64,000 bases of DNA from a virus. The stretch lies in the IMG/VR virus record IMGVR_UViG_3300021964_000016; one strand, 5' to 3'. The position numbers were made by a program, and so were the translations under genes. Below, one piece after another: positions 13,641 through 47,348 of the stretch; position 1 is the stretch's first letter, and the number at the start of each line of letters is the position of its first letter. The notes under the pieces are model-generated. The model had not been told where the DNA came from and did no database searches. It was given only the letters and a program-made list of their open reading frames with translations.

Positions 13641-14569
13641 TATATTTCCTCAATAAAACTATTAGCATATGCCCATTGCAGAGCACCATTCGCCTCTTTA
13701 TGTAGTGGACGGTTTTCGTACCAGTTACCTGTCTCTCTGTCAAGTTCTTTACAAAGATTGGTAATTTGATCTGCTGTTATTGGATACTTTGCCTTCACAG
13801 CATTACAAGCAGTCGCTACCATAATCCTATACATTTGATGGTACCAACCAGTCTCTGAAACTGATTTGTAATCGTCTGCCATTTTGTTCGGGAAGAAAGG
13901 GCAATCGCGATAACCAGACCAAGTTACGTTTGTATTGTCAAGAGAATTTTTACGATATTCTAAAACGGACTCTCGCATCTCTTCACTCAAATTATCAAGG
14001 AAGCTGTTACCAGTCTTTTCCTGATATGGGTGCTCGCGCATCAAACTGTCAACAGAAATTGGTTCGCCAGTCCTAGTATAGAAAAAATTAAAAGCATCAA
14101 CGTAATCCGCTGGGATGTAATACATTCGCGAACTGTCTTTTGTCTGTGCGTCTCCAAGATCGCCAATGGATTTATTAAGAGCAAACCAGAATTTTTTGAT
14201 TTCTTCTTTTCCAACTGCTCTATCGAGATCAAAGACAATTCTGAATTTAATTTTCTCAGGTGTAGATGAAGCAGTAGAGTAAACCACAATGTTATTATTT
14301 GCAAAACGATCAAGTACATCTTTTATGTCCCCCTCATAATCGTCAACATCGACGCATGCCCAATTTGCCCAGCATTCAACATTTTTATTAGCACGTGTAG
14401 TTCCTTCTTTGTAGACTGCTGGACTGATCAGTTGCGCGTCTTTCTTTCCTGATAGGGAAACTTTACTCAATTTTTCTAGCAATGAGACAAGACCTTCCCA
14501 ATCGGGAAAGTCCATCTTTCTGTGCGTTTTATTGTCGAACGCATTACGAAAAATTGTCAGGGAATACAT
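13640..14569 (-). CDS. archaeo-eukaryotic-type primase/primase-polymerase
   Basis: VDVDD acidic motif, YSTASS...KFRIVF, D..TKDSSRMYYIP and a helical C-terminal domain; coupled to gp43. Confidence 0.7.
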   Translation of the reverse strand: MYSLTIFRNAFDNKTHRKMDFPDWEGLVSLLEKLSKVSLSGKKDAQLISPAVYKEGTTRANKNVECWANWACVDVDDYEGDIKDVLDRFANNNIVVYSTASSTPEKIKFRIVFDLDRAVGKEEIKKFWFALNKSIGDLGDAQTKDSSRMYYIPADYVDAFNFFYTRTGEPISVDSLMREHPYQEKTGNSFLDNLSEEMRESVLEYRKNSLDNTNVTWSGYRDCPFFPNKMADDYKSVSETGWYHQMYRIMVATACNAVKAKYPITADQITNLCKELDRETGNWYENRPLHKEANGALQWAYANSFIEEI

Positions 14570-17088
14570 TACCCAAAAAAGTCCTCAAGCGAGATGACTT
14601 CCTCCTCTGTCCAACCGATCGCCTCCAGGACTGGGCGAACAACGGCGAGAAATGCCTTCTCAAATTGTGTATCATAATCAATATATTTGTGCAATCCAAA
14701 CTCTTTCGGAAGGAAATCATAGAATGCTATCACATTTTCCTTCATAGGGTTCTTCTTGTCAAGATAGAGGAATTTAATCTTCTCACCATCTTTGATAGTA
14801 TTATACCTTTTTTCTAATCCATTGTCAAGTAGTAATTTGTTGTATAATAGAGAACCACGCACGTGTATTGGGCAACCCTTTTTGTACACCGTATTACGGT
14901 CGCGCCATTTTCCTATGTCTGATACACCGCGAGGGAATGCTACCTCATGTGGCGCGAGACTCTTGAAGTGAGTCTTGAACAACTGGATGGCATCCTGAGT
15001 CTGCTTCTCAGTGCCAGTGATCATCACCTTGAACAGACCCTTCAGTGCATCACGACAAGAGGCAGGAGTAGACGACTTGACTGCCTCGATACCCATGATC
15101 TTCAACTTAGGTTTGGCATACTGAACACCCTCGTTGTTGTGCACGTTGAGGATGTATCGCTTCTTGGCAGTCCAGATACCAGCATCGGCGATTGCCTCAC
15201 GACCCATCACCATCTTGTTGGCGTATGCGTTCATGTAGTTGGCAAGGTCAGCGTATGATTTATCGAACAAAGGTTCAAACTTATCTTCGCCAATCTGTGA
15301 CAGCACCTGTACCGTCTTGTCGGTGTCCGTCAGTCCCATCTTCTCAACGAGTGGACCGAAGTTTACATACACCGAGTCAGTGTCAATCGCGATAACATAG
15401 TCGAAGTCTTCAGTACCAACGATCTTGTTCATGTACTGGTTCACTGCCTTTTCTGCCCAGCGGATGGACAACTGACCAGACATGGTGATTGCCTCTGCCA
15501 TGCGAATATCATAGTAGCGGAACCAACGATTACCGAGCGCACCATAGAGTGAGTTCATCATAATCTTAATCGCCATCTGCTGAGTGTCGAGTTTCGTTAT
15601 CTCTTTCTCAGCACCAGCAACACCCTTCTCAACCTGAGATTGTGCGCCAAGCATGTTCTTTTTGATCTGTTTTCTTTCAGAATACAAACCATCAATGATA
15701 GAGGGGAGAACACCACGTTCGTCTTTGCTGAAGTGAACACCATTGGCGGCGATACAATCCGTTGGGGATTTAGAATCGGGACGAGTTTTATCAAGGCAGT
15801 TGTCTACAGTAACACCAGAGGTTCGAGTTGAAACGATAGTCTCAGGGGACATATTGAACTGCATGATTAAGTGAGGATACAGAGAGTTCAAGTCAAAAGA
15901 AACAACCCAAGAGTGGCGACCAATTTGTGGTGTCTTTACAAACCCACCACCGAAGTCGACCTTACCATGATCCATTTTGGGAGGGACAACAATCTTACGA
16001 CTACAAAGTTCGCGATAAATGTAGGTGTCCCAGAGTTGCGTAGTACCAAATGCTTCCTGATAGTTACAACCACCCTTGTAGGCAATGGTCATGGCGAGAT
16101 CAATCAGACCCATCTTCTCGTCGATACGTTCTACTAGCAAAACGTCTTTGATGTTATAGTCAATAAACTTCTGATAGTCTTCTTTGTACAGGGTGTATAA
16201 ATTACCATGTTCTTCATAGGAAAGTTTCTTCTCTCCGAGAACGACGTTAGAAATATGGTCAAGTTTGTATGACTCTTGTACTCCATAAGAATAAACACCA
16301 AACTTCTGAAACAGGTCCCAGTAATCCAACTGCTCAATTCCCACGATATCGTAGACTTGTTGAGTTCTACCCTGTAAACTGACTTGCTTTTCCCGAACCA
16401 TGTTCCACGGAGACATTTTTTTGGAAGTATCAACGCCAATCAGTCGGTTAGTTCGGTTGATAAGATAGGGCAGGTCAAACATACGCACGTTCCAACCTGT
16501 AACCACGTCCGGACAAGTATCCCTATGATTCCAAAACTGAATAAACTTTAATAGAAGATCAAGTTCACCGTCACACTTGATGAAAATAATGTCCTCTGGA
16601 TTAATATCCAATTCAGTCTTAGATGGTTCGTATTTCTCTTCAAGTGCCCAGATATAAACTGTCTTTATCCCAAAATACTTCAGACAAATAGATTGAACCT
16701 CAGCATCAGCACGTTCTGGTTCAGGAAATCCATCATCAGAAGCAACCTCGATATCGATATTCGCTATCTTGATTACAGAAGAATCGTATTGTATGTCTTT
16801 TGGATAGTTCTTTTGTATATACTGTGCGGCGAAGTTGGTATTACCATGTGCTTCTAAAGAGTCAACATTTTCATATCGCTTCGCGAAATCAGTCGCCTCA
16901 GACATACTGTCAAAAACCATAGGTTCTACACAACGACCATCAAGAGTTCGCCACTCGCAATCAGTTTTACGAGAGGTCAAGTACATGACGGGATTGAAGG
17001 AGTCTCTGAATTGCTCTCGGATACCATCCTTGTATCCTCGATAACAAATGCTATTACCGATGCGGGAAATATTAGTATAAAATCTCAT
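14569..17088 (-). CDS. 43: family B DNA polymerase (T4 gp43)
   Basis: DIEV exonuclease motif, SFDLNSLYP, KIMMNSLYG and DTDS; C-terminal SLEDFFG. Confidence 0.97.
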   Translation of the reverse strand: MRFYTNISRIGNSICYRGYKDGIREQFRDSFNPVMYLTSRKTDCEWRTLDGRCVEPMVFDSMSEATDFAKRYENVDSLEAHGNTNFAAQYIQKNYPKDIQYDSSVIKIANIDIEVASDDGFPEPERADAEVQSICLKYFGIKTVYIWALEEKYEPSKTELDINPEDIIFIKCDGELDLLLKFIQFWNHRDTCPDVVTGWNVRMFDLPYLINRTNRLIGVDTSKKMSPWNMVREKQVSLQGRTQQVYDIVGIEQLDYWDLFQKFGVYSYGVQESYKLDHISNVVLGEKKLSYEEHGNLYTLYKEDYQKFIDYNIKDVLLVERIDEKMGLIDLAMTIAYKGGCNYQEAFGTTQLWDTYIYRELCSRKIVVPPKMDHGKVDFGGGFVKTPQIGRHSWVVSFDLNSLYPHLIMQFNMSPETIVSTRTSGVTVDNCLDKTRPDSKSPTDCIAANGVHFSKDERGVLPSIIDGLYSERKQIKKNMLGAQSQVEKGVAGAEKEITKLDTQQMAIKIMMNSLYGALGNRWFRYYDIRMAEAITMSGQLSIRWAEKAVNQYMNKIVGTEDFDYVIAIDTDSVYVNFGPLVEKMGLTDTDKTVQVLSQIGEDKFEPLFDKSYADLANYMNAYANKMVMGREAIADAGIWTAKKRYILNVHNNEGVQYAKPKLKIMGIEAVKSSTPASCRDALKGLFKVMITGTEKQTQDAIQLFKTHFKSLAPHEVAFPRGVSDIGKWRDRNTVYKKGCPIHVRGSLLYNKLLLDNGLEKRYNTIKDGEKIKFLYLDKKNPMKENVIAFYDFLPKEFGLHKYIDYDTQFEKAFLAVVRPVLEAIGWTEEEVISLEDFFG

Positions 17089-18807: not shown

Positions 18808-19536
18808 TCAATCTTCCAGTATATGATGCTTTGGTTCCCAACCATATTGCAACAAAATGGTCGGATTAGCGCAAGTGTCTGCTCTCTCGCCAGTAACTTC
18901 TTTGATGGGAAGGTTATTATCTGGCCAAACTTTATTCGCCATATCCACTACTGTTACTGGTTGCCCGTTGCCCACATCTATCGCGCGATACTCTTTCATG
19001 TCGTGAAAATTCTTTAGGCATACATCTATCGCGGAACAAATATCATCAACATGAGTCCAGTCTCGAGTATGATCCGTTAGGTAACTCACTTTTTTATTCA
19101 ATAGCATATCGTACAGCATGTCAACTCGACTGTTAGGACCATAGACAGTATGAAACCTCAAACCCAAAGTATTTCTTGGGGCGATGTATTCCATGAACCA
19201 CTTTGTACTCGCATACGGGGACAACCACCATTCGTAAACTGATGAAGAAGAAGCATACAGAACTGGGATTCTGGCGTCCTCACATTGCCTAAAAATTTTT
19301 TGAGATGCCACCACGTTCACGTCCCAATACAACTCTGGTTCTTCGTGCGACCTCCTCACTCCTGCCATAGCAGCAAGATGAAGTACCATATCGAAACCAT
19401 CAAACATGCTAATTTCAAAGTCTCTGATATCGCCTTCATATTCAGTGATATCATAAACATCACTATAGAGTTCTAAGAAACGACTAGCAATGAAACCTTT
19501 ACGGTATCCTCTTGTTCCAGTAAGTAATAATTTCAT
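18808..19536 (-). CDS. NAD-dependent nucleotide-sugar epimerase/dehydratase
   Basis: LLTG...GFI, HLAA, ASSSSVY, YASTK (YxxxK) and RFHTVYGP. Confidence 0.9.
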   Translation of the reverse strand: MKLLLTGTRGYRKGFIASRFLELYSDVYDITEYEGDIRDFEISMFDGFDMVLHLAAMAGVRRSHEEPELYWDVNVVASQKIFRQCEDARIPVLYASSSSVYEWWLSPYASTKWFMEYIAPRNTLGLRFHTVYGPNSRVDMLYDMLLNKKVSYLTDHTRDWTHVDDICSAIDVCLKNFHDMKEYRAIDVGNGQPVTVVDMANKVWPDNNLPIKEVTGERADTCANPTILLQYGWEPKHHILED

Positions 19537-21086: not shown

Positions 21087-21812
21087 TTAGTAGATTTTAC
21101 GCCAATCGAAATTTATGGTGGGGATGCTCGCCCACTCACTCTGGGATTTGTTCCTCTTCCAGACCATTTCTAAAATATCTTTGATGTGCTTCTGGTCTCT
21201 TTGAACAACGCTGAGGTCATCAGGATAGTAGGTTCCTGTAATAGTGTCATCAGTGTATACTGTCCTGCCCATACGATTGCAGGGGAGATTGTTTTCAGTT
21301 AATTCTGGAGTGCAAATTTGATCTAACCTCTCTCTGAAGATTTTATCGCCCATATGGTATCCTCTAAGTTCTTCATCGTATCCTCCTGCTCTCCAGAAGT
21401 CCTCGGTTCTAACACAAAAGATATTACCAGCGTCTCCGCCAAGTAGGGAAGCAACTATAAAACTCCCCTCCGGAGTGCTCTGGACTCTCTCGAGGAGTTC
21501 TTTAGTAAACCCCTCAGTCAACTCCACATCAACGTCTATGAAGAACAACCAATCGCCTGTTGCCTCTTGTGCAGCAAGATTTCTAGCACCATGAGCATTG
21601 AACCCAAAGTCAACGTCTATTCGATAGAGAGATAAATTAGCATACCAGAAAATGCCCTCGGCATCAAATTCTTTAATGATTGGTTCTGCTGGATAATCAA
21701 CGGAACCGTCATCAACTATGATTACCTCATCGAATAACTCTATCCAGTCATTCATGAGTATACCACGAAGTCTATTTGGATCTTCGTAATATGGAATACA
21801 GAGACTTATCAT
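21087..21812 (-). CDS. glycosyltransferase family 2
   Basis: IPYY, IIVDDGS, ARN, FIDVD and GGYDE. Confidence 0.85.
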   Translation of the reverse strand: MISLCIPYYEDPNRLRGILMNDWIELFDEVIIVDDGSVDYPAEPIIKEFDAEGIFWYANLSLYRIDVDFGFNAHGARNLAAQEATGDWLFFIDVDVELTEGFTKELLERVQSTPEGSFIVASLLGGDAGNIFCVRTEDFWRAGGYDEELRGYHMGDKIFRERLDQICTPELTENNLPCNRMGRTVYTDDTITGTYYPDDLSVVQRDQKHIKDILEMVWKRNKSQSEWASIPTINFDWRKIY

Positions 21813-23014
21813 ACTTTTCTCACACTCACTGCTGAACAACGACCACCGAATCCAAAACTTGTTTTCATCATGTGATCGTAAGAATATTTTTGGGGAGAGA
21901 ACATAAACTCAAAGTGTCCATCATTGGGAAATGGTTCTTGTAACCCTGCATTACCTGGAACCATATCGTCTCGCATCGCTTCGGCACCAAGGACCAACTC
22001 AGCGAGGCAACTAGCACCCATCAAATGACCGATCTGCCCTTTGTTGCTATAAATTTTACCAGAATCGTAGAAATGACGAAGAACATTATACTCAATAGGG
22101 TCGCCTAATACAGTGCCTGTACCGTGAGCGTTCAATACAGAATAGTCTTTGGGGGAGACATTAGACTGCCTCATCGCTTCTTTAATTGCTATCTTCCCAC
22201 CGATACCTTCGGGAGAAGGAGCAGTCGGATGCCCTGCGTCACTAGAAGTCGCGATACCGTCGACGACCCAGCGAATCTTTGCCTTTCTTTTAAGTGCAGA
22301 GTCAAGTGGTTCTATTACGAGATAAACACTACCCTCGCCCATCACCGTCCCATTACGAGAAACGTCCCATGGTTTAACCTCAGAGGTTGGACTTAACGCA
22401 CCCAACTGTTCAAAATAGTACATAGTGAGACTGGCAGTCATATGATCAGAAGCACCAATTATGGCACAATCGTGTCCTTGCATCAAATAATTTCTACCAA
22501 ACTCTAATGCTTGAACGCCACTGATACAAGTAGCAGAAACAACGCAGGAAGGACCATGTATCTGGTATCTTTCTGAGATAAGATTGCCGATATATTCATG
22601 AGAACTACTCAAAAGAACTTTTGGGTGAACCTTCCTTGATGCCTTTCTTGATAGTTTATCAACCCAAGCATTGTAAGTGGTGACTCCACCCTGGATGCTC
22701 CCTACAACCACAGGGGTCTCTTTCGGTAAGTCTATCCCACTCATCTGTACTGCTTCGTCAACTGCCATCATGCTAGTTTTAATGACAGGGTCAGAATAAC
22801 GGAGTTCTTTTAGATTGATGTGCTTACTTGCTTGCTCATCAGTATATTGAGAATAGAATATTTTAGTGCTTTTAATCAATTCCGATGATAAGTTATCAGG
22901 CGGGATTCTGTTATCTGACGAACCTACTGTCATGTCAAAGAGGTTCTGCATATTTTCGGACAAATTGCTCCCGATGGGAGAAACAATTCCGACTCCAGTA
23001 ACAGCAATTTTCAT
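21809..23014 (-). CDS. fabF: beta-ketoacyl-ACP synthase (FabF/FabB family)
   Basis: VTGVGIVSPIG, catalytic ATC, AHGTGT, GHLMGA and SFGFGG. Confidence 0.88.
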   Translation of the reverse strand: MKIAVTGVGIVSPIGSNLSENMQNLFDMTVGSSDNRIPPDNLSSELIKSTKIFYSQYTDEQASKHINLKELRYSDPVIKTSMMAVDEAVQMSGIDLPKETPVVVGSIQGGVTTYNAWVDKLSRKASRKVHPKVLLSSSHEYIGNLISERYQIHGPSCVVSATCISGVQALEFGRNYLMQGHDCAIIGASDHMTASLTMYYFEQLGALSPTSEVKPWDVSRNGTVMGEGSVYLVIEPLDSALKRKAKIRWVVDGIATSSDAGHPTAPSPEGIGGKIAIKEAMRQSNVSPKDYSVLNAHGTGTVLGDPIEYNVLRHFYDSGKIYSNKGQIGHLMGASCLAELVLGAEAMRDDMVPGNAGLQEPFPNDGHFEFMFSPQKYSYDHMMKTSFGFGGRCSAVSVRKV

Positions 23015-29447: not shown

Positions 29448-30122
29448 TTATTCTCCGTAAGTTGAGGATTTTTCAAGAGCGATGTAGTAACATACATCAA
29501 CGCTTTCGTTAGTAAATTTGGAAATCAGACGAGAGGAAATCTCAACATCATAATTACCAGATAACAATTGCAGGTTAGCAATGTTCATAACGAAAGAGAA
29601 CTGCTCTGAATCGTATGAACCTGGAACCGTGATATTGAAAGCATTGGAAGTATCGTCTGTGTTATCAACAACAGACAACAAAACCCCACCTTCAGTAGCA
29701 GTAATTGTCATCTTCTCGTGACCCAACGTACCAGCGGCACGTCGAACCCTTCCCAAAGTTGCCTCGTCCAGTTTGAAACAAACTTCAGACTCGGGCATAG
29801 GAATATCTTTGGAGACAGTAGTTAGGATGTCTGCATCAGAGTAAAAATACTTAACGTTCGATCGACCACTAGAATCCTTTACAGTTACAAACTTGTCGCC
29901 AAGATCAAGGGTTGGGTCTTCTACCAAACTCAAAGCAGACAAGAACTGGTCTACATCATAAATTCCAAAAGACTTATCGAAAGACTGATTCAGTTTTGCA
30001 ACTGCCATTACGTTCTTGGCATCAGAAATTGTCTTAACAGTATTGCCTTCTAAGATTAGAAGGTTCTTTTGGATACTGGCGAAGTTCGCCAGAACTTCCA
30101 TAGTTGTTTCATTTAGTTGCAT
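29448..30122 (-). CDS. 45: DNA polymerase sliding clamp (gp45)
   Basis: LANFASIQ, FGIYD..FL, G.YDV.IS and YYIALE. Confidence 0.92.
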   Translation of the reverse strand: MQLNETTMEVLANFASIQKNLLILEGNTVKTISDAKNVMAVAKLNQSFDKSFGIYDVDQFLSALSLVEDPTLDLGDKFVTVKDSSGRSNVKYFYSDADILTTVSKDIPMPESEVCFKLDEATLGRVRRAAGTLGHEKMTITATEGGVLLSVVDNTDDTSNAFNITVPGSYDSEQFSFVMNIANLQLLSGNYDVEISSRLISKFTNESVDVCYYIALEKSSTYGE

Positions 30123-30151
30123 CACGCTCTCCTTTACAAGCAACAAATACT

Positions 30152-34022: not shown

Positions 34023-34083
34023 ATTATCGCTGAAAATCAGTACAAAGTAAAGTAATAAAAAGTTCTTAAAAATCAACAACTTA
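34023..34083 (-). promoter_or_regulatory. sigma70-like promoter with IHF-consensus box
   Basis: TTTACT-N17-GATAAT plus AATCAACAACTTA at 34071-34083. Confidence 0.6.
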
Positions 34084-34618
34084 GAATGAAGTTGACTATC
34101 TCCTGTGTGTCAGAGGGAGTTTCATGACGCATCTCAATGACGCATCCTTTCTCCTCCCCGAACAGGGTCTGCTGGTCGCCGAAACGCTCAAGGATGTTGG
34201 CGCATTTGGTGCGGCAAGTCTGGATGAATTTCTCAGACTGGTCGGATCCTCGCTCTTTATATCGGCGTTCACGTTCAGCGGTCGATACAGTTAGGTGGAT
34301 AATGGTGAGGTTGTCGCCGCATGCTTCGAAGAAACCTGCGTTGTTCAAACGATCACCTTCGCCGACGATGAGTTCGTCGGGTTGAGTGGAGATCCACTCG
34401 ATTGCTTTGGGGGCAACTGCCATGCTCAGACGATCAGTACCACTGAAAGTCTCGCCTTCCTCATACTTGCCAAGGATACGGACAGTACCATTCACGTGAG
34501 TGTCAAGAAGGTCAATAGGTCGATCTTGCTTCCACTCACCACATTGAGTCTTCATAAACTCTTTCATGATGGTGGACTTGCCAGTTCCAGGAATGCCAAT
34601 AAGGTAGATCACTTTCAT
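34073..34618 (-). CDS. P-loop kinase of DNA-modification clusters (hydroxymethylpyrimidine kinase-like)
   Basis: GIPGTGKST, GTDRLSM and EGDRL; adjacent to the transferase-like gene. Confidence 0.75.
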   Translation of the reverse strand: MKVIYLIGIPGTGKSTIMKEFMKTQCGEWKQDRPIDLLDTHVNGTVRILGKYEEGETFSGTDRLSMAVAPKAIEWISTQPDELIVGEGDRLNNAGFFEACGDNLTIIHLTVSTAERERRYKERGSDQSEKFIQTCRTKCANILERFGDQQTLFGEEKGCVIEMRHETPSDTQEIVNFILSC

Positions 34619-34845
34619 TGGTTGGTGAATCTCCCGAATTCCATAATAAAGTTCTGTGCCATGATCTCTTTTTCAAAGTAAAAGGAATGTTGGTATATGT
34701 TGGTAAAAGATTTAAAATGCCAAGACTCTTTGCCCATTAATCTCTTGCACCAATCCTTTCCTTCTCGCTCAAGGTCGCTGTGCAAGGTGACTTCAAATCC
34801 AGGCATCCAACTATTCTTGTAATCGAATATCTGTTGTGGGGTCAT
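34615..34845 (-). CDS. hypothetical protein
   Basis: 76 aa; ATGA-coupled inside the operon. Confidence 0.7.
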   Translation of the reverse strand: MTPQQIFDYKNSWMPGFEVTLHSDLEREGKDWCKRLMGKESWHFKSFTNIYQHSFYFEKEIMAQNFIMEFGRFTNQ

Positions 34846-35813
34846 ACAAAAAAATCCTCTAACGCATTCGTTCTGTCCTTTGGGTGAAAGTCTCCCGTAT
34901 CAAGGAACAAATTGAATAGTTCTTTGTCTATTCTGCCCTTTAACCACTCTCGATCAATCGTTTCGTTTCTAGCATCCCACATAGGTGTCCAGTCAATCCC
35001 GTCCCAACCATCTCTCTCAACCTTTCGTATTTCTTCTGATTGTCGATCAAGGTAGTATCCAAGATATCGACCATGTTTTCTACGGAATAGTTTTTTGAAG
35101 GAGCAGAGGCAGGTTTCCATGGCAAAGAAGTCTGCCTTATCAGCAACGTGAGGATATTTTAGTTTGGTTTCTTCTAACATTTCCTTTGCTTCACTTTCCA
35201 GAAATGCTATTTGATCTTTGTCCAACTTTTGATCTACCCAATCTTCTTTTCCTAGTGCGTAACATAGTCCGTTACGATGCGAACGAGAACCGCTATAGTC
35301 GTGCAACCAAAGACTATCAACATCAACTGGAATATCACAGCACTGTTTGAGCGTTTGGATATAAAACCAAGAAGAGTATCTACCAAATTTGTGAAACGCA
35401 TTAACTGTCTCCCAAACAGTATAGAAATCCTTTACGGGGTCTCCGACAAATCCTTGTGTGAGTGCATCGTGTTGTGTTCGTTCTCCAACATATCGCTGGT
35501 ACGAAACGAACTGATCTGCAAGATGTCCTTTATTCCATTTCGTGTCGGTTTGATAACGCAAGCGGCGATAATTGGTGTTATTCCAATCGCGAAGGCGATC
35601 AACGCCAACCAACTCCATGTCGGGGAATTCGTTCCAAACCACATAGGCAGTTGGCCAATAATAAGTTGTTCCATAAATCCAAGTTATCCAGAGTCTTTGT
35701 TCTTTGTTGTATTCAAAACGATCAAAGAAGTATTTAGTCATGTACAATGCAGGGTCGCAGTCTTCTATTTCAAGACTGCGACCGAACCACTCTACAAATT
35801 TTTCTTTATACAC
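34842..35813 (-). CDS. amino acid:DNA transferase-like protein (aGPT-Pplase2 type, HhH-glycosylase fold)
   Basis: DCDP, KFGRYSSWFY and METCLCSFKK...RYLGYY motifs; C-terminal LEDFFV. Confidence 0.72.
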   Translation of the reverse strand: MYKEKFVEWFGRSLEIEDCDPALYMTKYFFDRFEYNKEQRLWITWIYGTTYYWPTAYVVWNEFPDMELVGVDRLRDWNNTNYRRLRYQTDTKWNKGHLADQFVSYQRYVGERTQHDALTQGFVGDPVKDFYTVWETVNAFHKFGRYSSWFYIQTLKQCCDIPVDVDSLWLHDYSGSRSHRNGLCYALGKEDWVDQKLDKDQIAFLESEAKEMLEETKLKYPHVADKADFFAMETCLCSFKKLFRRKHGRYLGYYLDRQSEEIRKVERDGWDGIDWTPMWDARNETIDREWLKGRIDKELFNLFLDTGDFHPKDRTNALEDFFV

Positions 35814-37263
35814 TAATATCTCTCGCGTTGATATAAAATAGTTCTGAACCTTCTCCTTTGGTTAAATAAGGCAGCACATATATATGAATATCTGGGCAAA
35901 CTTGTCTTTCAACCATAAGATCTTTTTTGAAGATTGATAAGATATGATCTCTGTCTTCAGTTATCTTTTCTCTTGGCACGTGACAAACTAAAACGCCAAC
36001 TTCTCCATTTTCTCTGTAGTTTCTTATTGCCGCACTATGGCAGTTACCAATCTGTGCGACACTAAATTCACCTTTACCAACAGATTTCACTTTGTATTTT
36101 CTCTTCAAATCTTTTATGAAAGATTCTCGACTTTGCCCCATGAGTCGGTTCACACTTTGCACACCCACATACTTTGCGTCTAACGCAGAGAGAGTTTTCT
36201 CAGAAACAAGTTGTTTCTCAATTGAACTAAATGCCGACTTAATCTTCGGGTCTGAATAATAGGAATCTCGTAAAATACTTCTCAGTTTTTTCTTTGAAAC
36301 GTTGTCGTTTAGCAAGTTGAGTTTTCTTTCCCAACTAACCTCAACCCCTTGTTTTTTGATCATATCCTCTAAATGGAAATGTAAACTCTGTTTGGCATCA
36401 TGCCCATCATTGACTTTATTTGTTTGGGTGTTATTATTGACTCGGTCTAGGAACTGTCTTACTAATCCGATATCACTATTGAAGTGAATTTTATAGTCCA
36501 TTCTGACAACGTACATAGAGTCTATGCCTATCTTGTGACAAACCTCAGTGCTATGATGTCCGTTACCTATGACCTCTTCTGGCATTGAGGGATAATCGTT
36601 TACCAATAAGACTGGTTTACAGTTTGCCGTTGGATCAATACCTCTAGAACGCTCGTCTTGGAATTTTTCCGTGAGTGTTTTTATATGAGAATCATCGTGA
36701 ACCTGGTTTCTAACTTGAATATTGTATCCATTTTTGATTTTTAAATACAAAGTTGAAACCATCTCTTTTTCTTTATTACTCTCATCATAATAAAAATTTT
36801 CTAATCTGGAAAGTATTTCTTCTGCGCTTTGCTGCTTTCCGACTTTGTAGTTCTCGACATCTTCTACGATTGACGCGACTGTGTCACGAACTTGTTTAGT
36901 GTCATAAGAAGTCAAGTCATACTCGCCCAAATCTAATCCGCTACCGTTTGATTCGTTATAAAAAGTTTCACGTCGTTTTGCATTCAGAGCTTGCAATACC
37001 CTTGTCTCAACTAACAGTGCGTGACCCGTGAGCATAGGAGATCCGTCTGATAATTGGTTCCAGTCTAAAACCCTGTCGAGGTCAGGTGAATCGTTCAAAA
37101 AATTGCTAGTTTTACAAGAACCCACATAAGCAGAATTTATTTCTTTAGTGTCTAACCCAAAATACTTGTGCCCAAACCTTGTTGAGATAGGGTTTGTGTT
37201 ACAGGTCAAATAAACGCCGGAGGGTTTTGACAAAAAGGGATTACTGTTTTGTTGATACGTCAT
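35806..37263 (-). CDS. uncharacterised protein with degenerate GIY-YIG/Seg-like N-terminus and ParB-like middle domain
   Basis: GVY...YVGS...E..VL...FYN..NG and QVR...PVLLV...NGHH; own promoter. Confidence 0.5.
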   Translation of the reverse strand: MTYQQNSNPFLSKPSGVYLTCNTNPISTRFGHKYFGLDTKEINSAYVGSCKTSNFLNDSPDLDRVLDWNQLSDGSPMLTGHALLVETRVLQALNAKRRETFYNESNGSGLDLGEYDLTSYDTKQVRDTVASIVEDVENYKVGKQQSAEEILSRLENFYYDESNKEKEMVSTLYLKIKNGYNIQVRNQVHDDSHIKTLTEKFQDERSRGIDPTANCKPVLLVNDYPSMPEEVIGNGHHSTEVCHKIGIDSMYVVRMDYKIHFNSDIGLVRQFLDRVNNNTQTNKVNDGHDAKQSLHFHLEDMIKKQGVEVSWERKLNLLNDNVSKKKLRSILRDSYYSDPKIKSAFSSIEKQLVSEKTLSALDAKYVGVQSVNRLMGQSRESFIKDLKRKYKVKSVGKGEFSVAQIGNCHSAAIRNYRENGEVGVLVCHVPREKITEDRDHILSIFKKDLMVERQVCPDIHIYVLPYLTKGEGSELFYINARDISV

Positions 37264-37302
37264 AATAACTATCCTTACAATTAAGTTACACAATACAGAT
37301 GT

Positions 37303-37363
37303 ATTATGCTATAACCGTTAATCAAAGTAAAATATCGAAAACCCCTGTAGAATCAACAACTTA
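37303..37363 (-). promoter_or_regulatory. sigma70-like promoter with IHF-consensus box
   Basis: TTTACT-N17-CATAAT plus AATCAACAACTTA at 37351-37363. Confidence 0.6.
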
Positions 37364-37903
37364 CAGAAACCCTTCCAGTCCAAGGGGTTCGTCAGCGAAT
37401 ACTTCAACACATCCTCCCTTGCCTTTTTTGTGTACTGCTTCATAGATCGGTTTATTTTCTAGACTATAATCGCCGTCAAAGAAGGTGTCACCAGTAATCC
37501 GAAACATAGATAATTGACACCCACTCTTTTGCTTCCCGAGCATAGTGAACCCAATTCGCTCGTAGAACTTTACAGCGTCAGGTTCAGCGGATACTCTAAA
37601 ATACAAAGCAGCGTTCTGTCTCGCAAAGCGGAGAGAGTCCTCGCAAAGAATACGACCAACCCCCTTACCTCTATGTTTAGCAAAGGTGTGAAGAAGTTGT
37701 AGGTTTGCTACTTTTGGGGAACGTTTGCTTATTGTTGTAATGATTGCACCTAGAAGAGAATCATCCTCATCCCAAGCACCTATACAAAAACTCCATTGCT
37801 CCTGCATATTTGCCTTGGCGACAAAAGTTTTTGCAAACTTGTCAGCAGGATCATCGGTTATTGCGTTTTTAAATTGTTCAGCAGAACATTCACGCAACTT
37901 CAT
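37361..37903 (-). CDS. GNAT-family acetyltransferase
   Basis: HRGKGVGR acetyl-CoA motif A and AVKFYERIGF. Confidence 0.88.
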   Translation of the reverse strand: MKLRECSAEQFKNAITDDPADKFAKTFVAKANMQEQWSFCIGAWDEDDSLLGAIITTISKRSPKVANLQLLHTFAKHRGKGVGRILCEDSLRFARQNAALYFRVSAEPDAVKFYERIGFTMLGKQKSGCQLSMFRITGDTFFDGDYSLENKPIYEAVHKKGKGGCVEVFADEPLGLEGFL

Positions 37904-38765
37904 GAAATTCTCTTTTCTTCTCTCCGCGAGACTTATCGTACTTTGTATTCATCCAACCTTTATACTCTCCTGGATTCCAAACGAAAGGAGGGAAGTTGAA
38001 GTTTCTAGAATCTAGGATCTCTTCAACACTAGGTCCGTCATTCAGAGCAGCATCAATAAATGCTTCAGCAAATATAAACTGATCTTCAATCTGTTTGCGA
38101 TCAGTTGTAGACCTGAAGCAACGGAACTCGATAGTACCAGTGTGCTTCATACAATAGGTGTTGATTGCATGGCGGAAAGGGCGACCCATTGAAACACCGT
38201 CCTTACCTGCTGCATGAAGTTTGATGAAGTGATCAAAATCTTCTGCAAGGTTTATGATGTTGTCACACATATAATCTGGCATTAGTCGACCGCCATCATA
38301 CTTCAAGTAAGTCTTTGAACCTTTGAGTATTTTCATCTCTGGTCTCTGACCAAATTGGTAACAAGACTCAACGGTTAGTTCTTGATTCTCTTTTATGTAT
38401 GCAATCAGTCGCTTTAAACCGTCAACATCTTCTTTCAGTCCAGGGACATAAACATGAAGGTGTCCATGATTGACGCAAGAGGCAGATGGTTTGTCTCCAT
38501 TCGCAACAAACAAATCATGTATCTCCATGATTCGATCTACTTGTTGTTGCCAAGTGCTTGTAGGTTTTGTATTGACTTCTCCACCGACAGGTGGTTCTAA
38601 TCCAAGAGGGTCGCAAGCAACAAACCTGTATGGTTCGTGAATGTTCACAATATCCGTTTCTGCATGTTCCCACGATCCAAGGTGCTCTGGAATTTCCAAA
38701 GTTCGGTCAATGTCACCCCATTCAATCTCATATCCATAAGTAAAGTCTTTTGGATTATAATTCAT
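37890..38765 (-). CDS. amidoligase (COOH-NH2 ligase, glutamine-synthetase-like fold)
   Basis: TYGYEIEW, GGEVNT, HGHLHV and TIEFRCF. Confidence 0.78.
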   Translation of the reverse strand: MNYNPKDFTYGYEIEWGDIDRTLEIPEHLGSWEHAETDIVNIHEPYRFVACDPLGLEPPVGGEVNTKPTSTWQQQVDRIMEIHDLFVANGDKPSASCVNHGHLHVYVPGLKEDVDGLKRLIAYIKENQELTVESCYQFGQRPEMKILKGSKTYLKYDGGRLMPDYMCDNIINLAEDFDHFIKLHAAGKDGVSMGRPFRHAINTYCMKHTGTIEFRCFRSTTDRKQIEDQFIFAEAFIDAALNDGPSVEEILDSRNFNFPPFVWNPGEYKGWMNTKYDKSRGEKKREFHEVA

Positions 38766-39433
38766 TGCAAGTCCTCCAGGTCAGGGTCGAAGAATCTCCT
38801 ATCTTCGTATAACCCACCATAATTACTGTAAGTGTATTTCACAAGAGGTTCGCATTTTTCTACATGACCTTCGATGCGAGACCTTCTAATTATATCTTCT
38901 GTTGAAGCAAAGATAAGACCGTTATCTCTTGGTGCCATCCAAAGAGGACGTTCATGATTTCTCCAACCATGTAGAACTCCATCTTCTATAGCGACGCATG
39001 CCATACTTCGGTGTTTGTAAACCTCAAGAGGAGTATCACCTGCCTCAATACATCGAAGTATCAATTCAGAATCATTTAAAGTCTCTGTTTCGTATTCCCA
39101 AATGTCTGGGTCTTGAGAGATAACTCCGTTGTGTGCGATAGAAATTTCTTTGCCTTGAAACGGTTGATTGTAACGTAGATCCGAAGTAGAGTATCGAGTA
39201 TGCCCTATACACAATAGAGTATCTCCGTCAACCCAATCTTCAACCGTGGTATGTCTGCCAAGGAAAAGGTAAGAGGAAGTTGGTTCTTTAATTGTATTGA
39301 ATTTACCGTCTTTGAAAAAGGTGACGCCAGTGGCATGTTTCCCGCGAATCATTGATTCTAAGAAAAGGTTACTAACTAATCCGCAATCAGCAGGAGTAAC
39401 ATCAGTGAGGTATACACCAATCACTCCGCACAT
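38762..39433 (-). CDS. class II (Ntn) glutamine amidotransferase domain protein
   Basis: MCGVIG N-terminal Cys, RG, GHTRYST, HNG, DSE and RPL. Confidence 0.88.
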   Translation of the reverse strand: MCGVIGVYLTDVTPADCGLVSNLFLESMIRGKHATGVTFFKDGKFNTIKEPTSSYLFLGRHTTVEDWVDGDTLLCIGHTRYSTSDLRYNQPFQGKEISIAHNGVISQDPDIWEYETETLNDSELILRCIEAGDTPLEVYKHRSMACVAIEDGVLHGWRNHERPLWMAPRDNGLIFASTEDIIRRSRIEGHVEKCEPLVKYTYSNYGGLYEDRRFFDPDLEDLQ

Positions 39434-40833
39434 TAAAAGAAATCCTCTAATGAACCAGCAACTTCAAATGCTTTAGGATGATACTGACGAACCATCGACT
39501 CGCCGCCTTCAACAGTCAACCAATCATACCACTCTTGTTCGTCCCACATGGAAGGCGATACACCATTCCAATATGGACGCCACAGTGGGTGTTCTTCATT
39601 CTTGCGGCGAGCGTCAACATAGGCACGACGCAGGTGCTCATACTCCCAACTACCCAACTTCGCCATATCCTCACGGAAATAAAATACGAGAGACATGCGC
39701 ATCAGGTCATCTTCACCAGTATCAGGTGCTTCGATTGGAGTGTTACCGTGGATAACTCGCATGTTGTCGACGAGCAACAGGTCACCAGGTCGGACATTAA
39801 TAGCAGCACGAACTTCAGGGCAAACGAGGTATCCGCCTTTCCAGTTTTTCTTGCCATCACTGATTACCGTCAAGTTAGAATAACCTTCGTTCAAAGAACC
39901 AGCATCGCGATGGCATGCCATACGAGCATTGCGATCTTTGGTGGTAGTATTGACAGTGATTGTGGTGAAAGTAGTATCTTCGCCAATCAGAAACTTTGGG
40001 TCAACTTTATCCGCCCATTTCTTTTGACGAGAATGACGAACAGGGAGTAATTCTGCGAAAGTTTTTTCTAGTTTCCTTGCGAACGGATAGCACTTTTCAA
40101 ACGTTTCTCTATGGTGATCAGTATACGCTGTAGCGCGACCATAAGGTATGCGAGGATAACGACCATAGAACCCAGCGATACCACTCCAAATAGCAGTGGC
40201 ATAAGAAGTATCTGAAATAAAATCTGTTTTAATTTTTTTAGCATATGCTTTTGCCTCTTCAAGAGGCATGGACTTCAATTTCTCCTCTAGTTTAGGGAAG
40301 AAATTTTTGTAGTCTCCGAACTCTGGTTCCACTTTGGTGCGTAACCAAACACCACCGCGAATCTCATCCTTATTTATATTTGCAAATTCAACGAGTGGAT
40401 CTGAACCATCGATACTCGGTGGTTGTCCTTTTGCATACCAATCAAGTACATTAGATTGGTAAATAGTCACCCAATCTCTCCCGCCCTGAGTTTCTTCTCT
40501 TGGACCTGCTGCTAGACCACGGTTATTTGATTCTACTGCTGCACCATACAAACCCTCAAAAGCACCGTCTTGTTCTTCTTGAGTGAAAACATTCTTACGA
40601 AACTTAAAAGCAATAAGATCTTCATCATGTGTTTCTTCAGTTATATCGCTAGAAGGAAGATAAAAGTCTGTATCCTCTTCTATTAACAAGTCGTAAGAAG
40701 TTTCGTCCGCATAAGTACCAAGAACAGCATCATCCGATTCAAGAAACTGTGCGACGTAAACATCTTGACCTTGATCGCCTTTGTATTTCTTCCATTGGCG
40801 ACCTGAAATATTAATCAATTCCATGAAGAACAC
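39433..40833 (-). CDS. TET/JBP-family 2OG-Fe(II) 5-methylpyrimidine dioxygenase
   Basis: FTTITVN, HRDAG (HxD), HGNTPI and RMSLVFYFRE; C-terminal SLEDFF. Confidence 0.82.
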   Translation of the reverse strand: MFFMELINISGRQWKKYKGDQGQDVYVAQFLESDDAVLGTYADETSYDLLIEEDTDFYLPSSDITEETHDEDLIAFKFRKNVFTQEEQDGAFEGLYGAAVESNNRGLAAGPREETQGGRDWVTIYQSNVLDWYAKGQPPSIDGSDPLVEFANINKDEIRGGVWLRTKVEPEFGDYKNFFPKLEEKLKSMPLEEAKAYAKKIKTDFISDTSYATAIWSGIAGFYGRYPRIPYGRATAYTDHHRETFEKCYPFARKLEKTFAELLPVRHSRQKKWADKVDPKFLIGEDTTFTTITVNTTTKDRNARMACHRDAGSLNEGYSNLTVISDGKKNWKGGYLVCPEVRAAINVRPGDLLLVDNMRVIHGNTPIEAPDTGEDDLMRMSLVFYFREDMAKLGSWEYEHLRRAYVDARRKNEEHPLWRPYWNGVSPSMWDEQEWYDWLTVEGGESMVRQYHPKAFEVAGSLEDFF

Positions 40834-40993
40834 CGTTCACATATATCATACTATCTACCATCGTGTATTTGTTCTTGTTAGTTACCAATGAATAACCGTT
40901 AAAATCAAGAACCTTTTCTTTTCCTTTATCTTGTATTTCTTTCTTCAACTCTACAAGAGAGTTATACCTTTTTCTTTTTAACTTGTGCACCAA
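40811..40993 (-). CDS. small hypothetical protein
   Basis: 60-aa basic ORF coupled to the TET/JBP gene. Confidence 0.55.
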   Translation of the reverse strand: MVHKLKRKRYNSLVELKKEIQDKGKEKVLDFNGYSLVTNKNKYTMVDSMIYVNGVLHGID

Positions 40994-41000
40994 TTATAAC

Positions 41001-41510
41001 CTATTTTCTTTTTTTAGTCAAGTATTCGTTCCCGTGTGAGGCATGTGGACCATTGGCATCAACATAGTGGAGGAAAGACTGATATACAAAGTCAGCAGGG
41101 TTCTCTTCTCTCCAATGCTCAACATCACAACCACGATAAATCACTGCGTCTCCTTGTTTCATCAAAACAGAACCTCCCTCCCAGAAAAACTCCCAAGGAA
41201 CTTGCACGTTTTTTAGGTTTATGGTAACTGAAACTTCGCAAGAAGGTCTATCGGCATGACGGCGAAGGATATTATCTTTTTTATATATCCTACAATAATC
41301 ATATGTGGGTACCAATTCTATGCCAGTTATTTCAGACATCTTATCACAACAGTCTTCGAGTAAGTCCCAGTGTAACCCATACCATGCCCAAGAATTAGGA
41401 ACTTGAGTATCGTCTGTCCTAGAAATCACCTTATTATCGTCCATACGAGAAGCGTGCTTCTCAGCGACTTCTTTCTCTATAAAATTCGGAACATAAGTTG
41501 CTAATTTCAT
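41001..41510 (-). CDS. 2OG-Fe(II) oxygenase
   Basis: HADRPSCEVS, GDAVIYRG..HWR and FLHY. Confidence 0.82.
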   Translation of the reverse strand: MKLATYVPNFIEKEVAEKHASRMDDNKVISRTDDTQVPNSWAWYGLHWDLLEDCCDKMSEITGIELVPTYDYCRIYKKDNILRRHADRPSCEVSVTINLKNVQVPWEFFWEGGSVLMKQGDAVIYRGCDVEHWREENPADFVYQSFLHYVDANGPHASHGNEYLTKKRK

Positions 41511-45150: not shown

Positions 45151-45539
45151 TCTTCTGTAAGAAGTCCTTTCTTGGAAGGAAATGACAAAACATTGCTGGT
45201 CTTACACTCAACCTCAGATCCGCCCTTTCCTAAGTGCTCTTGTATGGAGACTACAGAGTTTGAGTACTGCTCGACGACTGTGTCAGAGGGGGTATGAATT
45301 GAGATAACAGAGAAAGGATTGATCGAAACCGTCCTTTCCAAATCTTCAGTATATTGAATATAAGGACGAAGTATATAATATGACTTACCATTATTATCAT
45401 ATTCATCTTCTATATTCTCAATAGGAACCATATCTAAAGCGAAGTTAACAATGAAACTGTCTTCAGATTGTTCAATAACGCAGGCAATAACATCTTGCCC
45501 ATTACAAAGTTTAAATTGTACTATATCTTCTTTTTTCAT
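45147..45539 (-). CDS. hypothetical protein between uvsW and gp55
   Basis: QFKLCNGQDVIA N-terminus; position typical of T4-like genomes. Confidence 0.65.
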   Translation of the reverse strand: MKKEDIVQFKLCNGQDVIACVIEQSEDSFIVNFALDMVPIENIEDEYDNNGKSYYILRPYIQYTEDLERTVSINPFSVISIHTPSDTVVEQYSNSVVSIQEHLGKGGSEVECKTSNVLSFPSKKGLLTED

Positions 45540-47002
45540 AAAACCACCTTATGTAGTTCGAAGTCAAACTTTTCTTTGGTATACATTTTGATCCTTTCCC
45601 CAGCATGCTTCAGGGTGAAGTTTTGCCTAGAATGATACTGCATATCATCGGAAAGATCGTATAGTTTTGTGTCCTGTCCGTTATCTGCTTTCCTCAATCC
45701 TCTTCCGATTGATTGGAGGACTTTGACTTGGGATTTTGAAGGACTAGCAAAAATAATGTTATGCAGATTCCTAATGTTAATCCCAGTACTAAATGTACCA
45801 AGAGAGGCGACGATAATTGCTCCGTCTTGTTTCTCCACGATACCTCGTATTGCTTCGCGGTCTGAGGTATCAGTCCCACCGTGAACATAATAGACTTTAT
45901 CGCTTTGTACTTCTTTAATCATTTTGTGAAGTATTTCTCCGTGTTTCTCCACGAACTGAAAAAGCACGAGAGTATTCCCCTTTTGAGTTACTGCCAAATT
46001 TCGTATAAACTTATTCCTAGGTTCATATGTCACAAGAAAATCTACTTCTTCTTGATATGTCAACTCTTTATTCATTATACGGGTTTCTTCTGAATAGTCA
46101 AGTAATAACATGTCTATCTTGAGTTTAGCGAGGGTTCCTTTGTCCTGTAGGTCTCTAGTAAAAGTAACCCTTTTAGTGGGACCAAATAAACCTTCAAGAA
46201 CAAGTTTGTGTACCTGAGACCCGTCTAGCGTTCCTGTAGTTCCGAATCTATACTCTGCTTCCGTACACTTATTCATTAAGGTGGTGAGGGACTTTGCTTT
46301 AAATAGATGACACTCGTCGCCAAACACACAACCAAACACATCAAACCAATCTTTGCCTAGTCTGTAAACCGATTGCCAAGTTGTGATCACTATTCTTTTG
46401 TCTGTTTTCTTGTCTTTGCCTGAGTAGATTATGTGACATTCATTCTCTGCATCAAACCCATAATCTTTAAAATCTTTGTACATCTGTTCAACCAAAGAGG
46501 TCGTGGGCACTACAATCAACACAGACTTATCGTTGTTCTCCAGATACCAACGCATAAGATTGTATATTATGAAAGATTTGCCAGAGCCAGTAGGAGAGAG
46601 CAGCACTGCTCTCTTTCTCTGTATTCCATGCGTGATAGCATCGTACTGATAATCACGAGGAGGAAATGGCATTTTCCAAAGTGCTTGCGAGGATACTAGT
46701 TTCTGGTGATCAACTTTATTAGTCGCATTCGGTAGTCCATAAGGCGAATGCTCCATTTGCATATGGTAGTGACGGTCTGCTGCAAAACGACAAAGTTTAG
46801 CATACAACCCAACATTAAGTTCGCAGGTTATGGGATTAAACAAACGAATCTTACCGTCCCACTGTTTGCGACGATAAGAAGGAATAAATTTATATCCAGG
46901 AACATAGAAAGAAAAGTATTCTTTGAGTTCTGCGCGAACAGAAGGATCACAGACTACTGCCATCATAGAATGATTTTGCATTTGAATGGTTATATTAGAC
47001 AT
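45536..47002 (-). CDS. uvsW: SF2 helicase UvsW
   Basis: PRDYQ, PTGSGKS, DECH and QSIGRGLR; start MSNITI at 47002. Confidence 0.95.
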   Translation of the reverse strand: MSNITIQMQNHSMMAVVCDPSVRAELKEYFSFYVPGYKFIPSYRRKQWDGKIRLFNPITCELNVGLYAKLCRFAADRHYHMQMEHSPYGLPNATNKVDHQKLVSSQALWKMPFPPRDYQYDAITHGIQRKRAVLLSPTGSGKSFIIYNLMRWYLENNDKSVLIVVPTTSLVEQMYKDFKDYGFDAENECHIIYSGKDKKTDKRIVITTWQSVYRLGKDWFDVFGCVFGDECHLFKAKSLTTLMNKCTEAEYRFGTTGTLDGSQVHKLVLEGLFGPTKRVTFTRDLQDKGTLAKLKIDMLLLDYSEETRIMNKELTYQEEVDFLVTYEPRNKFIRNLAVTQKGNTLVLFQFVEKHGEILHKMIKEVQSDKVYYVHGGTDTSDREAIRGIVEKQDGAIIVASLGTFSTGINIRNLHNIIFASPSKSQVKVLQSIGRGLRKADNGQDTKLYDLSDDMQYHSRQNFTLKHAGERIKMYTKEKFDFELHKVVL

Positions 47003-47348
47003 TTTCCCAAACAGCATCAGCGGTAAACCGATAACTTCCAATAAATTCGTATTTATCCCATTCCGAAGGAGAGATAATACTAAGGAAATGTCCACCTTCT
47101 TTTCTGTATAGGTGATATGTCTTACCAACTTTTGGTTCAAATCCATATGTGGACTTGTAAACAATGTCGGTTTCGTTAGCGAGTTTGACTAAACTTTCGT
47201 ACTGCTTCTGTAGTTCTTGAAACTTTCCTTCAAAGAAGTTTGCTGCTTGCGCACCTCTTTCGCTTTTGAAAAGATCTACATCAGGTAATACTATTGCTGG
47301 TGCTGAGGAAGTTATTCCATAAGGAAGTAAACTAGAACTATCAACCAT
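46995..47348 (-). CDS. DUF2452-like protein
   Basis: LPYG...APAI and FEPKVGKTYHLY...FLSIISP.EW. Confidence 0.65.
   Translation of the reverse strand: MVDSSSLLPYGITSSAPAIVLPDVDLFKSERGAQAANFFEGKFQELQKQYESLVKLANETDIVYKSTYGFEPKVGKTYHLYRKEGGHFLSIISPSEWDKYEFIGSYRFTADAVWENV

Follow-up and report, generated by a model that had tools for sequence, protein, structure and literature searches.

What would a T4-like phage make with an operon that opens with a TET/JBP dioxygenase and continues with a glutamine amidotransferase (GATase), an amidoligase, a GNAT acyltransferase, an amino acid:DNA transferase (AADT) and a P-loop kinase, and how would these enzymes reach its DNA? The question is raised by a 64,000-nucleotide stretch of IMG/VR virus record IMGVR_UViG_3300021964_000016, here called the window, in which such genes lie between gp46 and gp45. 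We regard the locus as most likely an operon with which an uncultured marine T4-like myophage hypermodifies thymidine after replication. The operon class is already published with an uncharacterised product, and the pathway logic followed here is a published prediction (PMC8989533, PMC13229309). What we add is the modularity of the cassette, the lack of a competing route in the stretches searched, C-terminal tails on several of the enzymes that resemble the tail of the phage's own DNA polymerase, and a ParB-like cassette that is swapped between near-identical strains.

An operon of eight reading frames and its enzymes

PHROG and Pfam scans identified the window as part of a T4-like myophage with all genes on the minus strand. 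The closest capsid proteins are those of phage C48C1 (67%), Methylophilales phage Melnitz (63%) and Pelagibacter phage HTVC008M (62%), and a megablast search against phage records found no cultured phage match at the DNA level. The same phage is present in several metagenomes (locus L078 is 99.96% identical across 18 kb), and the amidoligase of the operon is also found on contigs of up to 150,785 bp. The phage is an uncultured marine T4-like myophage.

The operon consists of eight open reading frames (ORFs), among them the six enzyme genes (Table 1). Most are joined by stop/start overlaps (1, 4, 14, 8, 4 and 4 nt along the operon), and the single true gap lies at 37264-37360. The initial annotation had described six enzyme genes, largely overlap-coupled, between gp46 and gp45. 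The ORF positions bear out the location, strand and coupling of these genes, but the count omitted an ORF of 485 amino acids (aa) and another of 76 aa. The operon is indeed flanked by gp46 and gp45, but it adjoins neither: a 169-aa gene separates it from gp46, and a 55-aa ORF together with CobT/CobS-like genes separates it from gp45. The promoter-like site at its head is a consensus match, and shuffled sequence holds no fewer such sites in total than the region does. The operon is probably transcribed early from a sigma-70-type promoter. An ORF of 59-60 aa preceding the TET gene (40811-40993) begins at or before the expected transcription start of this promoter, and this stretch may not be a gene but a 5' leader.

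The TET/JBP protein probably starts at the ATG at 40824, as opposed to the ORF of 39433-40833 given earlier. It matches Tet_JBP (PF12851) with an E value of 2.5e-15 and 56.5 bits against a cut-off of 34.9. The HRD...HGNT...R motif reported for it is real: H308, D310, H362 and R379 are invariant across 26 homologues and make up the HxD...H iron triad and the arginine that binds 2-oxoglutarate (2OG). An AlphaFold (AF2) model built from the 26 homologues (mean predicted local distance difference test, pLDDT, 78) matched NgTET1 (1.2e-8), human TET2, CcTet and CMD1 in Foldseek searches, with E values from 1e-8 to 1e-6, so that the protein does model as a TET/JBP enzyme. The assignment is solid. A reading of the N-terminal 230 residues as a fused ParB or nuclease domain was rejected: the region is kept in all homologues, including those of phages with TET only, and human TET2 aligns over about 470 columns. 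The N-terminal half also holds an invariant NRGLAAGPR loop (residues 104-112; 40498-40524), modelled at a pLDDT below 50, which may be a DNA-contact or base-flipping loop.

The GATase matches GATase_6 (7.9e-8, 32.8 bits against a cut-off of 27). Its sequence opens with MCG, and C2, R30, R80, N102-G103 and D121 are invariant in 15 homologues. Mapped on GlmS/PurF numbering, these are presumably the catalytic cysteine (C2), the glutamine-binding arginine, the Asn-Gly oxyanion hole and the aspartate. Judged by these positions, the enzyme would keep every residue for binding and hydrolysing free glutamine and would be glutaminase-competent. The protein encoded next is probably an Amidoligase_2-type ligase. 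Its ExE, HxH and ExR motifs (G11-E13-E15, H100-H102-H104 and E213-R215-R218) are invariant, and ESM Atlas clusters named amidoligase score 0.98, with PF12224 found on 30-51% of cluster members. The GNAT matches Acetyltransf_10 (2.9e-13, 50.4 bits against a cut-off of 23.6) and Acetyltransf_1 (4.7e-10, 40.2 bits), and an acyl donor other than acetyl-CoA is possible.

The AADT (a family formerly called aGPT-Pplase) matches ADDT (PF18724; 5.9e-21, 75.7 bits against a cut-off of 26.2) and phrog_3271 (2e-52), and tblastn found relatives in 378 phage records, including those of ViI-type phages. The kinase matches Ploopntkinase3 (2.3e-17, 63.6 bits against a cut-off of 27). Compared with PDB sequences, the AADT and the kinase gave chance-level matches only. 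All six gene identities proposed in the initial annotation hold, that of the amidoligase through its conserved motifs and its ESM Atlas look-alikes.

Table 1. Features of the operon and of the replication genes to which it is compared (window coordinates)
Feature	Length	Coordinates	Strand	Remarks
Sigma-70-type promoter-like site		40993..41021	-	TTGACT-17-TATAAT; 11/12 consensus; best match in region; heads operon
TET/JBP (5mYOX) Fe(II)/2OG dioxygenase	463 aa	39433..40824	-	predicted thymine to 5-hydroxymethyluracil (5hmU); tail ..GSLEDFF
Stand-alone class II (Ntn) GATase	223 aa	38762..39433	-	GATase_6; C-terminal ..DLQ
Amidoligase_2-type carboxylate-amine ligase	291 aa	37890..38765	-	probable; PF12224 and conserved motifs
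GNAT N-acyltransferase	180 aa	37361..37903	-	tail ..GLEGFL
GIY-YIG-like N-terminal domain with ParB/sulfiredoxin-fold domain (residues ~155-293)	485 aa	35806..37263	-	hypervariable cassette; domain assignments tentative
AADT	323 aa	34842..35813	-	tail ..NALEDFFV
76-aa ORF	76 aa	34615..34845	-	translationally coupled to both neighbours; conservation limited to near-identical strains
P-loop nucleobase kinase	181 aa	34073..34618	-	predicted 5-hydroxymethyl-deoxyuridine DNA kinase
gp45 sliding clamp		29448..30146	-	phrog_223 (1.9e-66), PF09116; proposed docking platform for tailed enzymes
gp43 DNA polymerase		14569..17088	-	phrog_262; C-terminus ..VISLEDFFG, the reference tail

Modularity of the cassette and its predicted chemistry

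A search of IMG/VR with the TET protein returned at least 73 loci. Comparison of all operon proteins with these loci by tblastn revealed a modular cassette of fixed order. The full set runs TET-GATase-amidoligase-GNAT-ParB-like-AADT-kinase, and a reduced set runs TET-GATase-GNAT-AADT-kinase, the 211-aa gene there being the GNAT; in a third state the TET gene stands alone. Of these loci, 33 extend for 6.5 kb or more past the TET gene on its downstream side; 13 of the 33 hold the full set, four the reduced set, one the AADT plus the kinase, and 15 TET only. The AADT gene was found in the same order in 18 of the 33, and the co-occurrence of the operon genes in related phages is far beyond chance. 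The operon of the window is thus an intact and well-conserved member of its class. The GATase accompanies the AADT subtype of the window in nearly every sampled locus with that subtype and persists where the amidoligase is absent, and a distant AADT (27% identical), found in phage Cr30 and at locus L073, comes without a GATase.

By analogy with characterised homologues, the pathway would begin with hydroxylation of thymine in duplex phage DNA by the TET/JBP enzyme, giving 5-hydroxymethyl-deoxyuridine (5-hmdU). The kinase would then phosphorylate the hydroxymethyl group to the phosphomethyl form (5-PmdU), and the AADT would replace the phosphate with an amine nucleophile. Side-chain tailoring would follow, through N-acylation by the GNAT and formation of an ATP-dependent amide bond by the amidoligase. 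Phage 5mYOX enzymes of clades C1 and C2 have thymine dioxygenase activity and lack a neighbouring C5-methyltransferase, and the ParB-dependent 5mYOX subclass is "consistently linked" with GATases, P-loop kinases and AADTs (O'Toole et al. 2026, PMC13229309). The 5-hmdU DNA kinases (5-HMUDK) add one phosphate to 5-hmdU in DNA to give 5-PmdU, AADTs displace this phosphate with glycine, serine or putrescine, and the GNAT of phage PaMx11 acetylates 5-aminomethyl-dU (5-NmdU; Lee et al. 2021, PMC8989533). The same study describes metavirome contigs that have a TET_JBP gene in place of the dUMP hydroxymethylase, beside amidoligase and glutaminotransferase genes of unknown function.

The initial annotation had proposed this logic, with a handle made by TET after replication, then activated, substituted and tailored, and it had cautioned that such neighbourhoods were predicted without a known product. 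The biochemistry of the homologues supports the former (PMC8989533, PMC13229309), and the caution was right, such TET_JBP contigs being named in PMC8989533. Its kinase step has to be amended: it invoked pyrophosphorylation, and enzymes of this kinase family add a single phosphate (PMC8989533).

Thymine rather than 5-methylcytosine (5mC) is most likely the native substrate of the TET enzyme, again by analogy and from its genomic context, the neighbourhood being of clade C1 type, and it would be modified after replication. In a cytosine pathway, a C5-methyltransferase encoded elsewhere would make 5mC, TET would oxidise it to 5-hydroxymethylcytosine, and the kinase and transferase would hypermodify cytosine. 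Cytosine hypermodification has been suggested for some contigs (Burke et al. 2021). The phage TETs in clades A and B act as dioxygenases on 5mC, and some of the contigs that carry a C5-methyltransferase and a TET also have P-loop kinases and aGPT-Pplases. However, neither PF00145 (C5-methyltransferase) nor PF00303 (ThyA family) was found among the window proteins or in the roughly 30 kb that a sister-strain contig adds upstream, where a dCMP deaminase is present, and PF00145 is also missing from the complete genomes of phages Cr30 and C48C1 and from three long IMG/VR contigs. Furthermore, active phage 5mC-TETs adjoin their methyltransferase, and the characterised substrates of the kinases and AADTs are 5hmU derivatives. 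We consider a cytosine pathway very improbable.

We give still less credence to a supply of 5hmU before replication, in which a dUMP hydroxymethylase encoded elsewhere would act as in the ViI, M6 and SP8-type route and TET would have another or a redundant role. This is the route of every cultured phage with a characterised kinase/AADT pathway (PMC8989533). However, the window and the upstream walk lack a ThyA-family gene, as do C48C1 and the three long contigs; among the relatives only Cr30 has PF00303, in an ordinary-looking ThyA with a strong match to the ThyA model (373 bits). Moreover, the operon opens with TET, whose linkage to the cassette is strict, and TET_JBP contigs without a hydroxymethylase are on record (PMC8989533). 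The search of the rest of the genome for either enzyme that the initial annotation had suggested was therefore negative for the window and about 30 kb upstream, and about 55 kb of genome past the window end lies outside its scope, which leaves some room for both of these routes. Since TET is present and PF00303 is absent from the window, the upstream stretch and most relatives, the operon would be a TET-initiated variant of the 5-HMUDK/AADT pathway.

For the nucleophile our preferred reading, held tentatively, is ammonia, which the GATase would release from glutamine and the AADT would use to form 5-aminomethyl-dU. A glutaminase domain needs an acceptor, and the reduced set has no carboxylate-activating enzyme, which leaves the AADT as the only plausible partner of the GATase. 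In the reduced five-gene set, the GNAT would acetylate 5-aminomethyl-dU to 5-acetamidomethyl-dU, the product of PaMx11 reached by another route. The amidoligase of the full set would attach a carboxylate-bearing group to the 5-aminomethyl amine, or would amidate an appended amino acid. Alternatively, the AADT would use a free amino acid as nucleophile, which is the case in phages M6, PaMx11 and ViI.

Several points weigh against this account of the operon. We infer its product, its nucleophile and the order of its steps, and the stretch of about 55 kb beyond the searches could hold either of the missing enzymes. Some clade C1 enzymes are inactive or ParB-dependent in E. coli (PMC13229309); in the loci compared here, neither the reduced set nor TET alone comes with the ParB-like gene. 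The amidoligase scores 20.1 bits with PF12224, below the 22-bit cut-off and over only the C-terminal part of the profile, and a profile search against PDB sequences found no solved relative. A search for fused AADT proteins of 623-2000 aa, GATase-AADT fusions included, found none, although this is weak evidence.

Polymerase-like C-terminal tails and the sliding clamp

Comparison of the C-termini of 81 window ORFs revealed a shared tail pattern in five and in no other. The five are gp43, TET, AADT and GNAT, whose tails are given in Table 1, and gp55, which ends in ..DLSDFLEE with two extra residues. The tail stands at the extreme C-terminus of essentially all TET homologues ([ST]LE[DES][FL]F), of most AADTs (GLExF/W) and of some GNATs; for TET and AADT this conservation spans dozens of homologues. 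In six other genomes, including those of TET-only phages, the polymerase and TET tails are again of the same type. In T4, the similar acidic-hydrophobic C-termini of gp43, gp55 and gp33 can stand in for one another as epitopes that bind gp45 (Geiduschek and Kassavetis 2010, PMC2988020). We lean towards the view that TET, AADT and GNAT are likewise tethered to the gp45 clamp through their tails. They would dock on clamps left on new DNA, coupling modification to replication. The kinase, the amidoligase and the GATase have no clamp-type tail, which speaks against tethering.

Structure prediction for gp45 with TET residues 396-466 gave a score of 0.47, compared with 0.02 for the best control; at least 97% of contacts were the same between runs, and the partner pLDDT was at least 70. 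The mark set for these predictions was reached by 58 of 80 solved complexes and by two of 110 mismatched pairs. Only seven of the 80 solved complexes, but both of the passing mismatches, reached the mark with a score of 0.60 or less, and such scores are more often wrong than right unless the guess is already likely. The prediction lends weak support to clamp binding, and its pass may partly reflect likeness to solved clamp-peptide complexes.

This weakness leaves room for a different explanation, namely that the shared tails are docking motifs among the modification enzymes, or to some other hub, and do not bind the clamp. However, the same tail ends the phage's own gp43 and gp55, proteins that bind gp45 by their tails in T4, and TET-only phages, which lack the AADT and the ParB-like protein, keep a TET tail matching their own polymerase. 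We consider docking of this kind unlikely, and clamp tethering remains the reading we favour.

A second conserved ending was seen in the GATase. Its homologues end in ..DLQ or ..DYQ (D221 and Q223 invariant; 38762-38773 in the window), and the GNAT of locus L042 also ends in ..AIDLQ. This end could be a second docking motif.

A replaceable ParB-fold gene and the wider setting

The 485-aa gene between GNAT and AADT has its own promoter-like site (37331-37303), and the sole intergenic gap of the operon directly precedes it. On its own, the protein matched nothing in Pfam or PHROG. Each full-set locus has a gene of 425-495 aa at this position, and these form a single very divergent family whose members are 12-20% identical, whereas the neighbouring operon genes are 50-80% identical. 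This large family evolves quickly and counts 997 representatives at 50% identity. Its N-terminal part looks like GIY-YIG (VY..RN...MYxG..YxxS...E...YN), and faint GIY-YIG, SegE_GIY-YIG and ParB_N Pfam matches are scattered among family members, the distant ones giving only two faint SegE_GIY-YIG matches. In our reading of the alignment, the position of the usual conserved GIY-YIG arginine is a tyrosine in this family. The region of residues ~155-293 carries the motif NQVR...PV..VV...DGN....A and has weak profile matches to Noc, free serine kinase (SerK) and SbnI (E 0.03-0.4). Its top ten Foldseek matches are all ParB/Noc (E 5e-3, probability 0.9), and VIA-align gave Z scores of 7.9 for sulfiredoxin, 6.9 for pNOB8 ParB-N, 6.6 for KorB and 6.0 for SerK. 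These lines are each weak but concordant, and a ParB/sulfiredoxin fold is weakly supported for this region.

At the nucleotide level, the block 35800-37351, made up of the gene and the spacer upstream of it, shows no similarity to the corresponding block of a related locus (L005:8306-9735), where an unrelated-looking version from the same family fills the slot. The flanks are 92-96% identical, which marks the block as a replaceable cassette. TETs that are 95% identical accompany ParB-like proteins that are 17% identical, so a tight cognate pairing of the two is unlikely. The gene lies four genes from TET and occurs only in amidoligase-bearing loci, always between GNAT and AADT, though not in all of them: it is missing from L032 and L076 and shortened to 184 aa in L042. 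A supposed association of this gene with TET was dropped, the gene following the amidoligase-bearing version only, and that not strictly.

As a role for this protein we put forward, by analogy and with reserve, that it is an activator or targeting factor of the pathway, as ParB-like proteins are in PMC13229309; an enzyme of ParB/sulfiredoxin fold, such as a kinase, seems improbable. Somewhat behind the activator reading stands the possibility that the gene is a selfish, Seg-like homing cassette at a fixed site in the operon and takes no part in the pathway. The separate promoter-like site and gap would suit such an element, as would its exchange between near-identical flanks, its divergence relative to its neighbours, its loss or shortening in some amidoligase loci, the weak SegE_GIY-YIG matches and the great diversity of the family. 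However, ParB-like proteins activate their cognate phage thymine dioxygenases (PMC13229309), the gene keeps a constant position and occurs only with the amidoligase, the tyrosine in place of the GIY-YIG arginine argues against an active nuclease, and its stop overlaps the AADT start by 8 nt.

The closest described systems are the metavirome TET_JBP/5mYOX clusters (PMC8989533, Fig. 2, sequences 22-25; PMC13229309, clade C1). They share with this operon a TET gene without an adjoining C5-methyltransferase, a neighbouring P-loop 5-hmdU kinase, AADT, GATase, amidoligase and GNAT, a ParB-like gene within the cluster, and a predicted in situ formation of 5hmU followed by substitution. Unlike these clusters, the operon studied here sits in a T4-like replication module between gp46 and gp45, and its ParB-fold protein has a GIY-YIG-like N-terminal domain, is swapped between near-identical strains and does not occur in many of the sister cassettes. 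The TET protein is about 460 aa long, compared with about 290-300 aa in the ParB-independent subclass (PMC13229309), and TET, AADT and GNAT bear the polymerase tail, a feature that the main text of PMC13229309 does not mention.

The gp46-gp49 route of PaMx11 to 5-acetylaminomethyl-dU (PMC8989533) likewise has a kinase, an AADT and a GNAT acting on 5-hmdU, and an acylated-amine end group is likely in both. In PaMx11, however, 5-hmdU is incorporated at replication, and glycine is installed and then trimmed by a flavin-dependent lyase (PMC8989533). The present operon has no flavin (FAD), pyridoxal phosphate (PLP) or radical-SAM enzyme and carries the TET, GATase and amidoligase genes instead. With trypanosomatid JBP1/2 and base J it would share post-replicative hydroxylation of thymine by a TET/JBP enzyme as the first step towards a bulky base; base J is completed by glucosylation, whereas phosphorylation and amine substitution are predicted here. 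As in the T4 gp43, gp55 and gp33 epitopes (PMC2988020), the tails are short, acidic-hydrophobic, at the extreme C-terminus and of the same type as the phage's own polymerase tail. Unlike those epitopes, they are carried by base-modifying enzymes, for which clamp binding is predicted only.

Elsewhere in the window the scans found gp13, gp14, gp15, large terminase, sheath, portal, prohead protease, scaffold, gp23, UvsW, gp55, gp47 and gp46, together with the CobT/CobS-like genes, gp45, gp44, gp43, primase, UvsX and gp41. A 163-aa 2OG oxygenase of the Asp/Arg-hydroxylase type (PF05118; 28740-29231) lies just past gp45, and further 2OG oxygenases and a radical SAM/SPASM gene were seen upstream of the window in sister strain L083. 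The replication module also holds a beta-ketoacyl synthase (PF00109/PF02801, 401 aa; 21809-23014), an unusual auxiliary gene. The replication genes are also interspersed with genes for sugars and tailoring, at 811-1383, 11951-12934, 12993-13640 and 18808-19536; these comprise a sulfotransferase (PF03567), a UDP-glucose/GDP-mannose dehydrogenase-like gene, a Methyltransf_24 gene and an NAD-dependent epimerase/dehydratase. A reprolysin-like metalloprotease has 204 aa here (3578-4192) and 414 aa in sister strain L082 (L082:6562-7806), in which a GIY-YIG gene is inserted beside a Dam-like methyltransferase. UvsW (45536-47164) is one protein of 536-542 aa here and in L078; L079 (L079:1418-3230) and L080 have a 117-aa DUF2452 protein and a 476-aa UvsW instead of the single UvsW.

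Taken as a whole, the picture would be one in which clamp-riding TET, AADT and GNAT and an ammonia-fed AADT, with extension by the amidoligase, build an undescribed thymidine hypermodification whose place or time is set by the ParB-fold protein. That all of these elements hold together is doubtful, and each carries the strength given to it above. Hypermodification after replication must match a fast replisome, and clamp tethering, if true, would explain how it does so; the base-modifying enzymes of this pathway would then form a further class of T4-type clamp client. The roles of the GATase and amidoligase are the uncharacterised steps named as open in PMC8989533. With 707 amidoligase clusters at 90% identity and at least 73 TET loci, the cassette is common in environmental T4-like phages, and its product would accordingly be a widespread natural DNA base, one that bears on evasion of restriction and CRISPR, on bias in virome sequencing and on enzymatic tools for DNA labelling.

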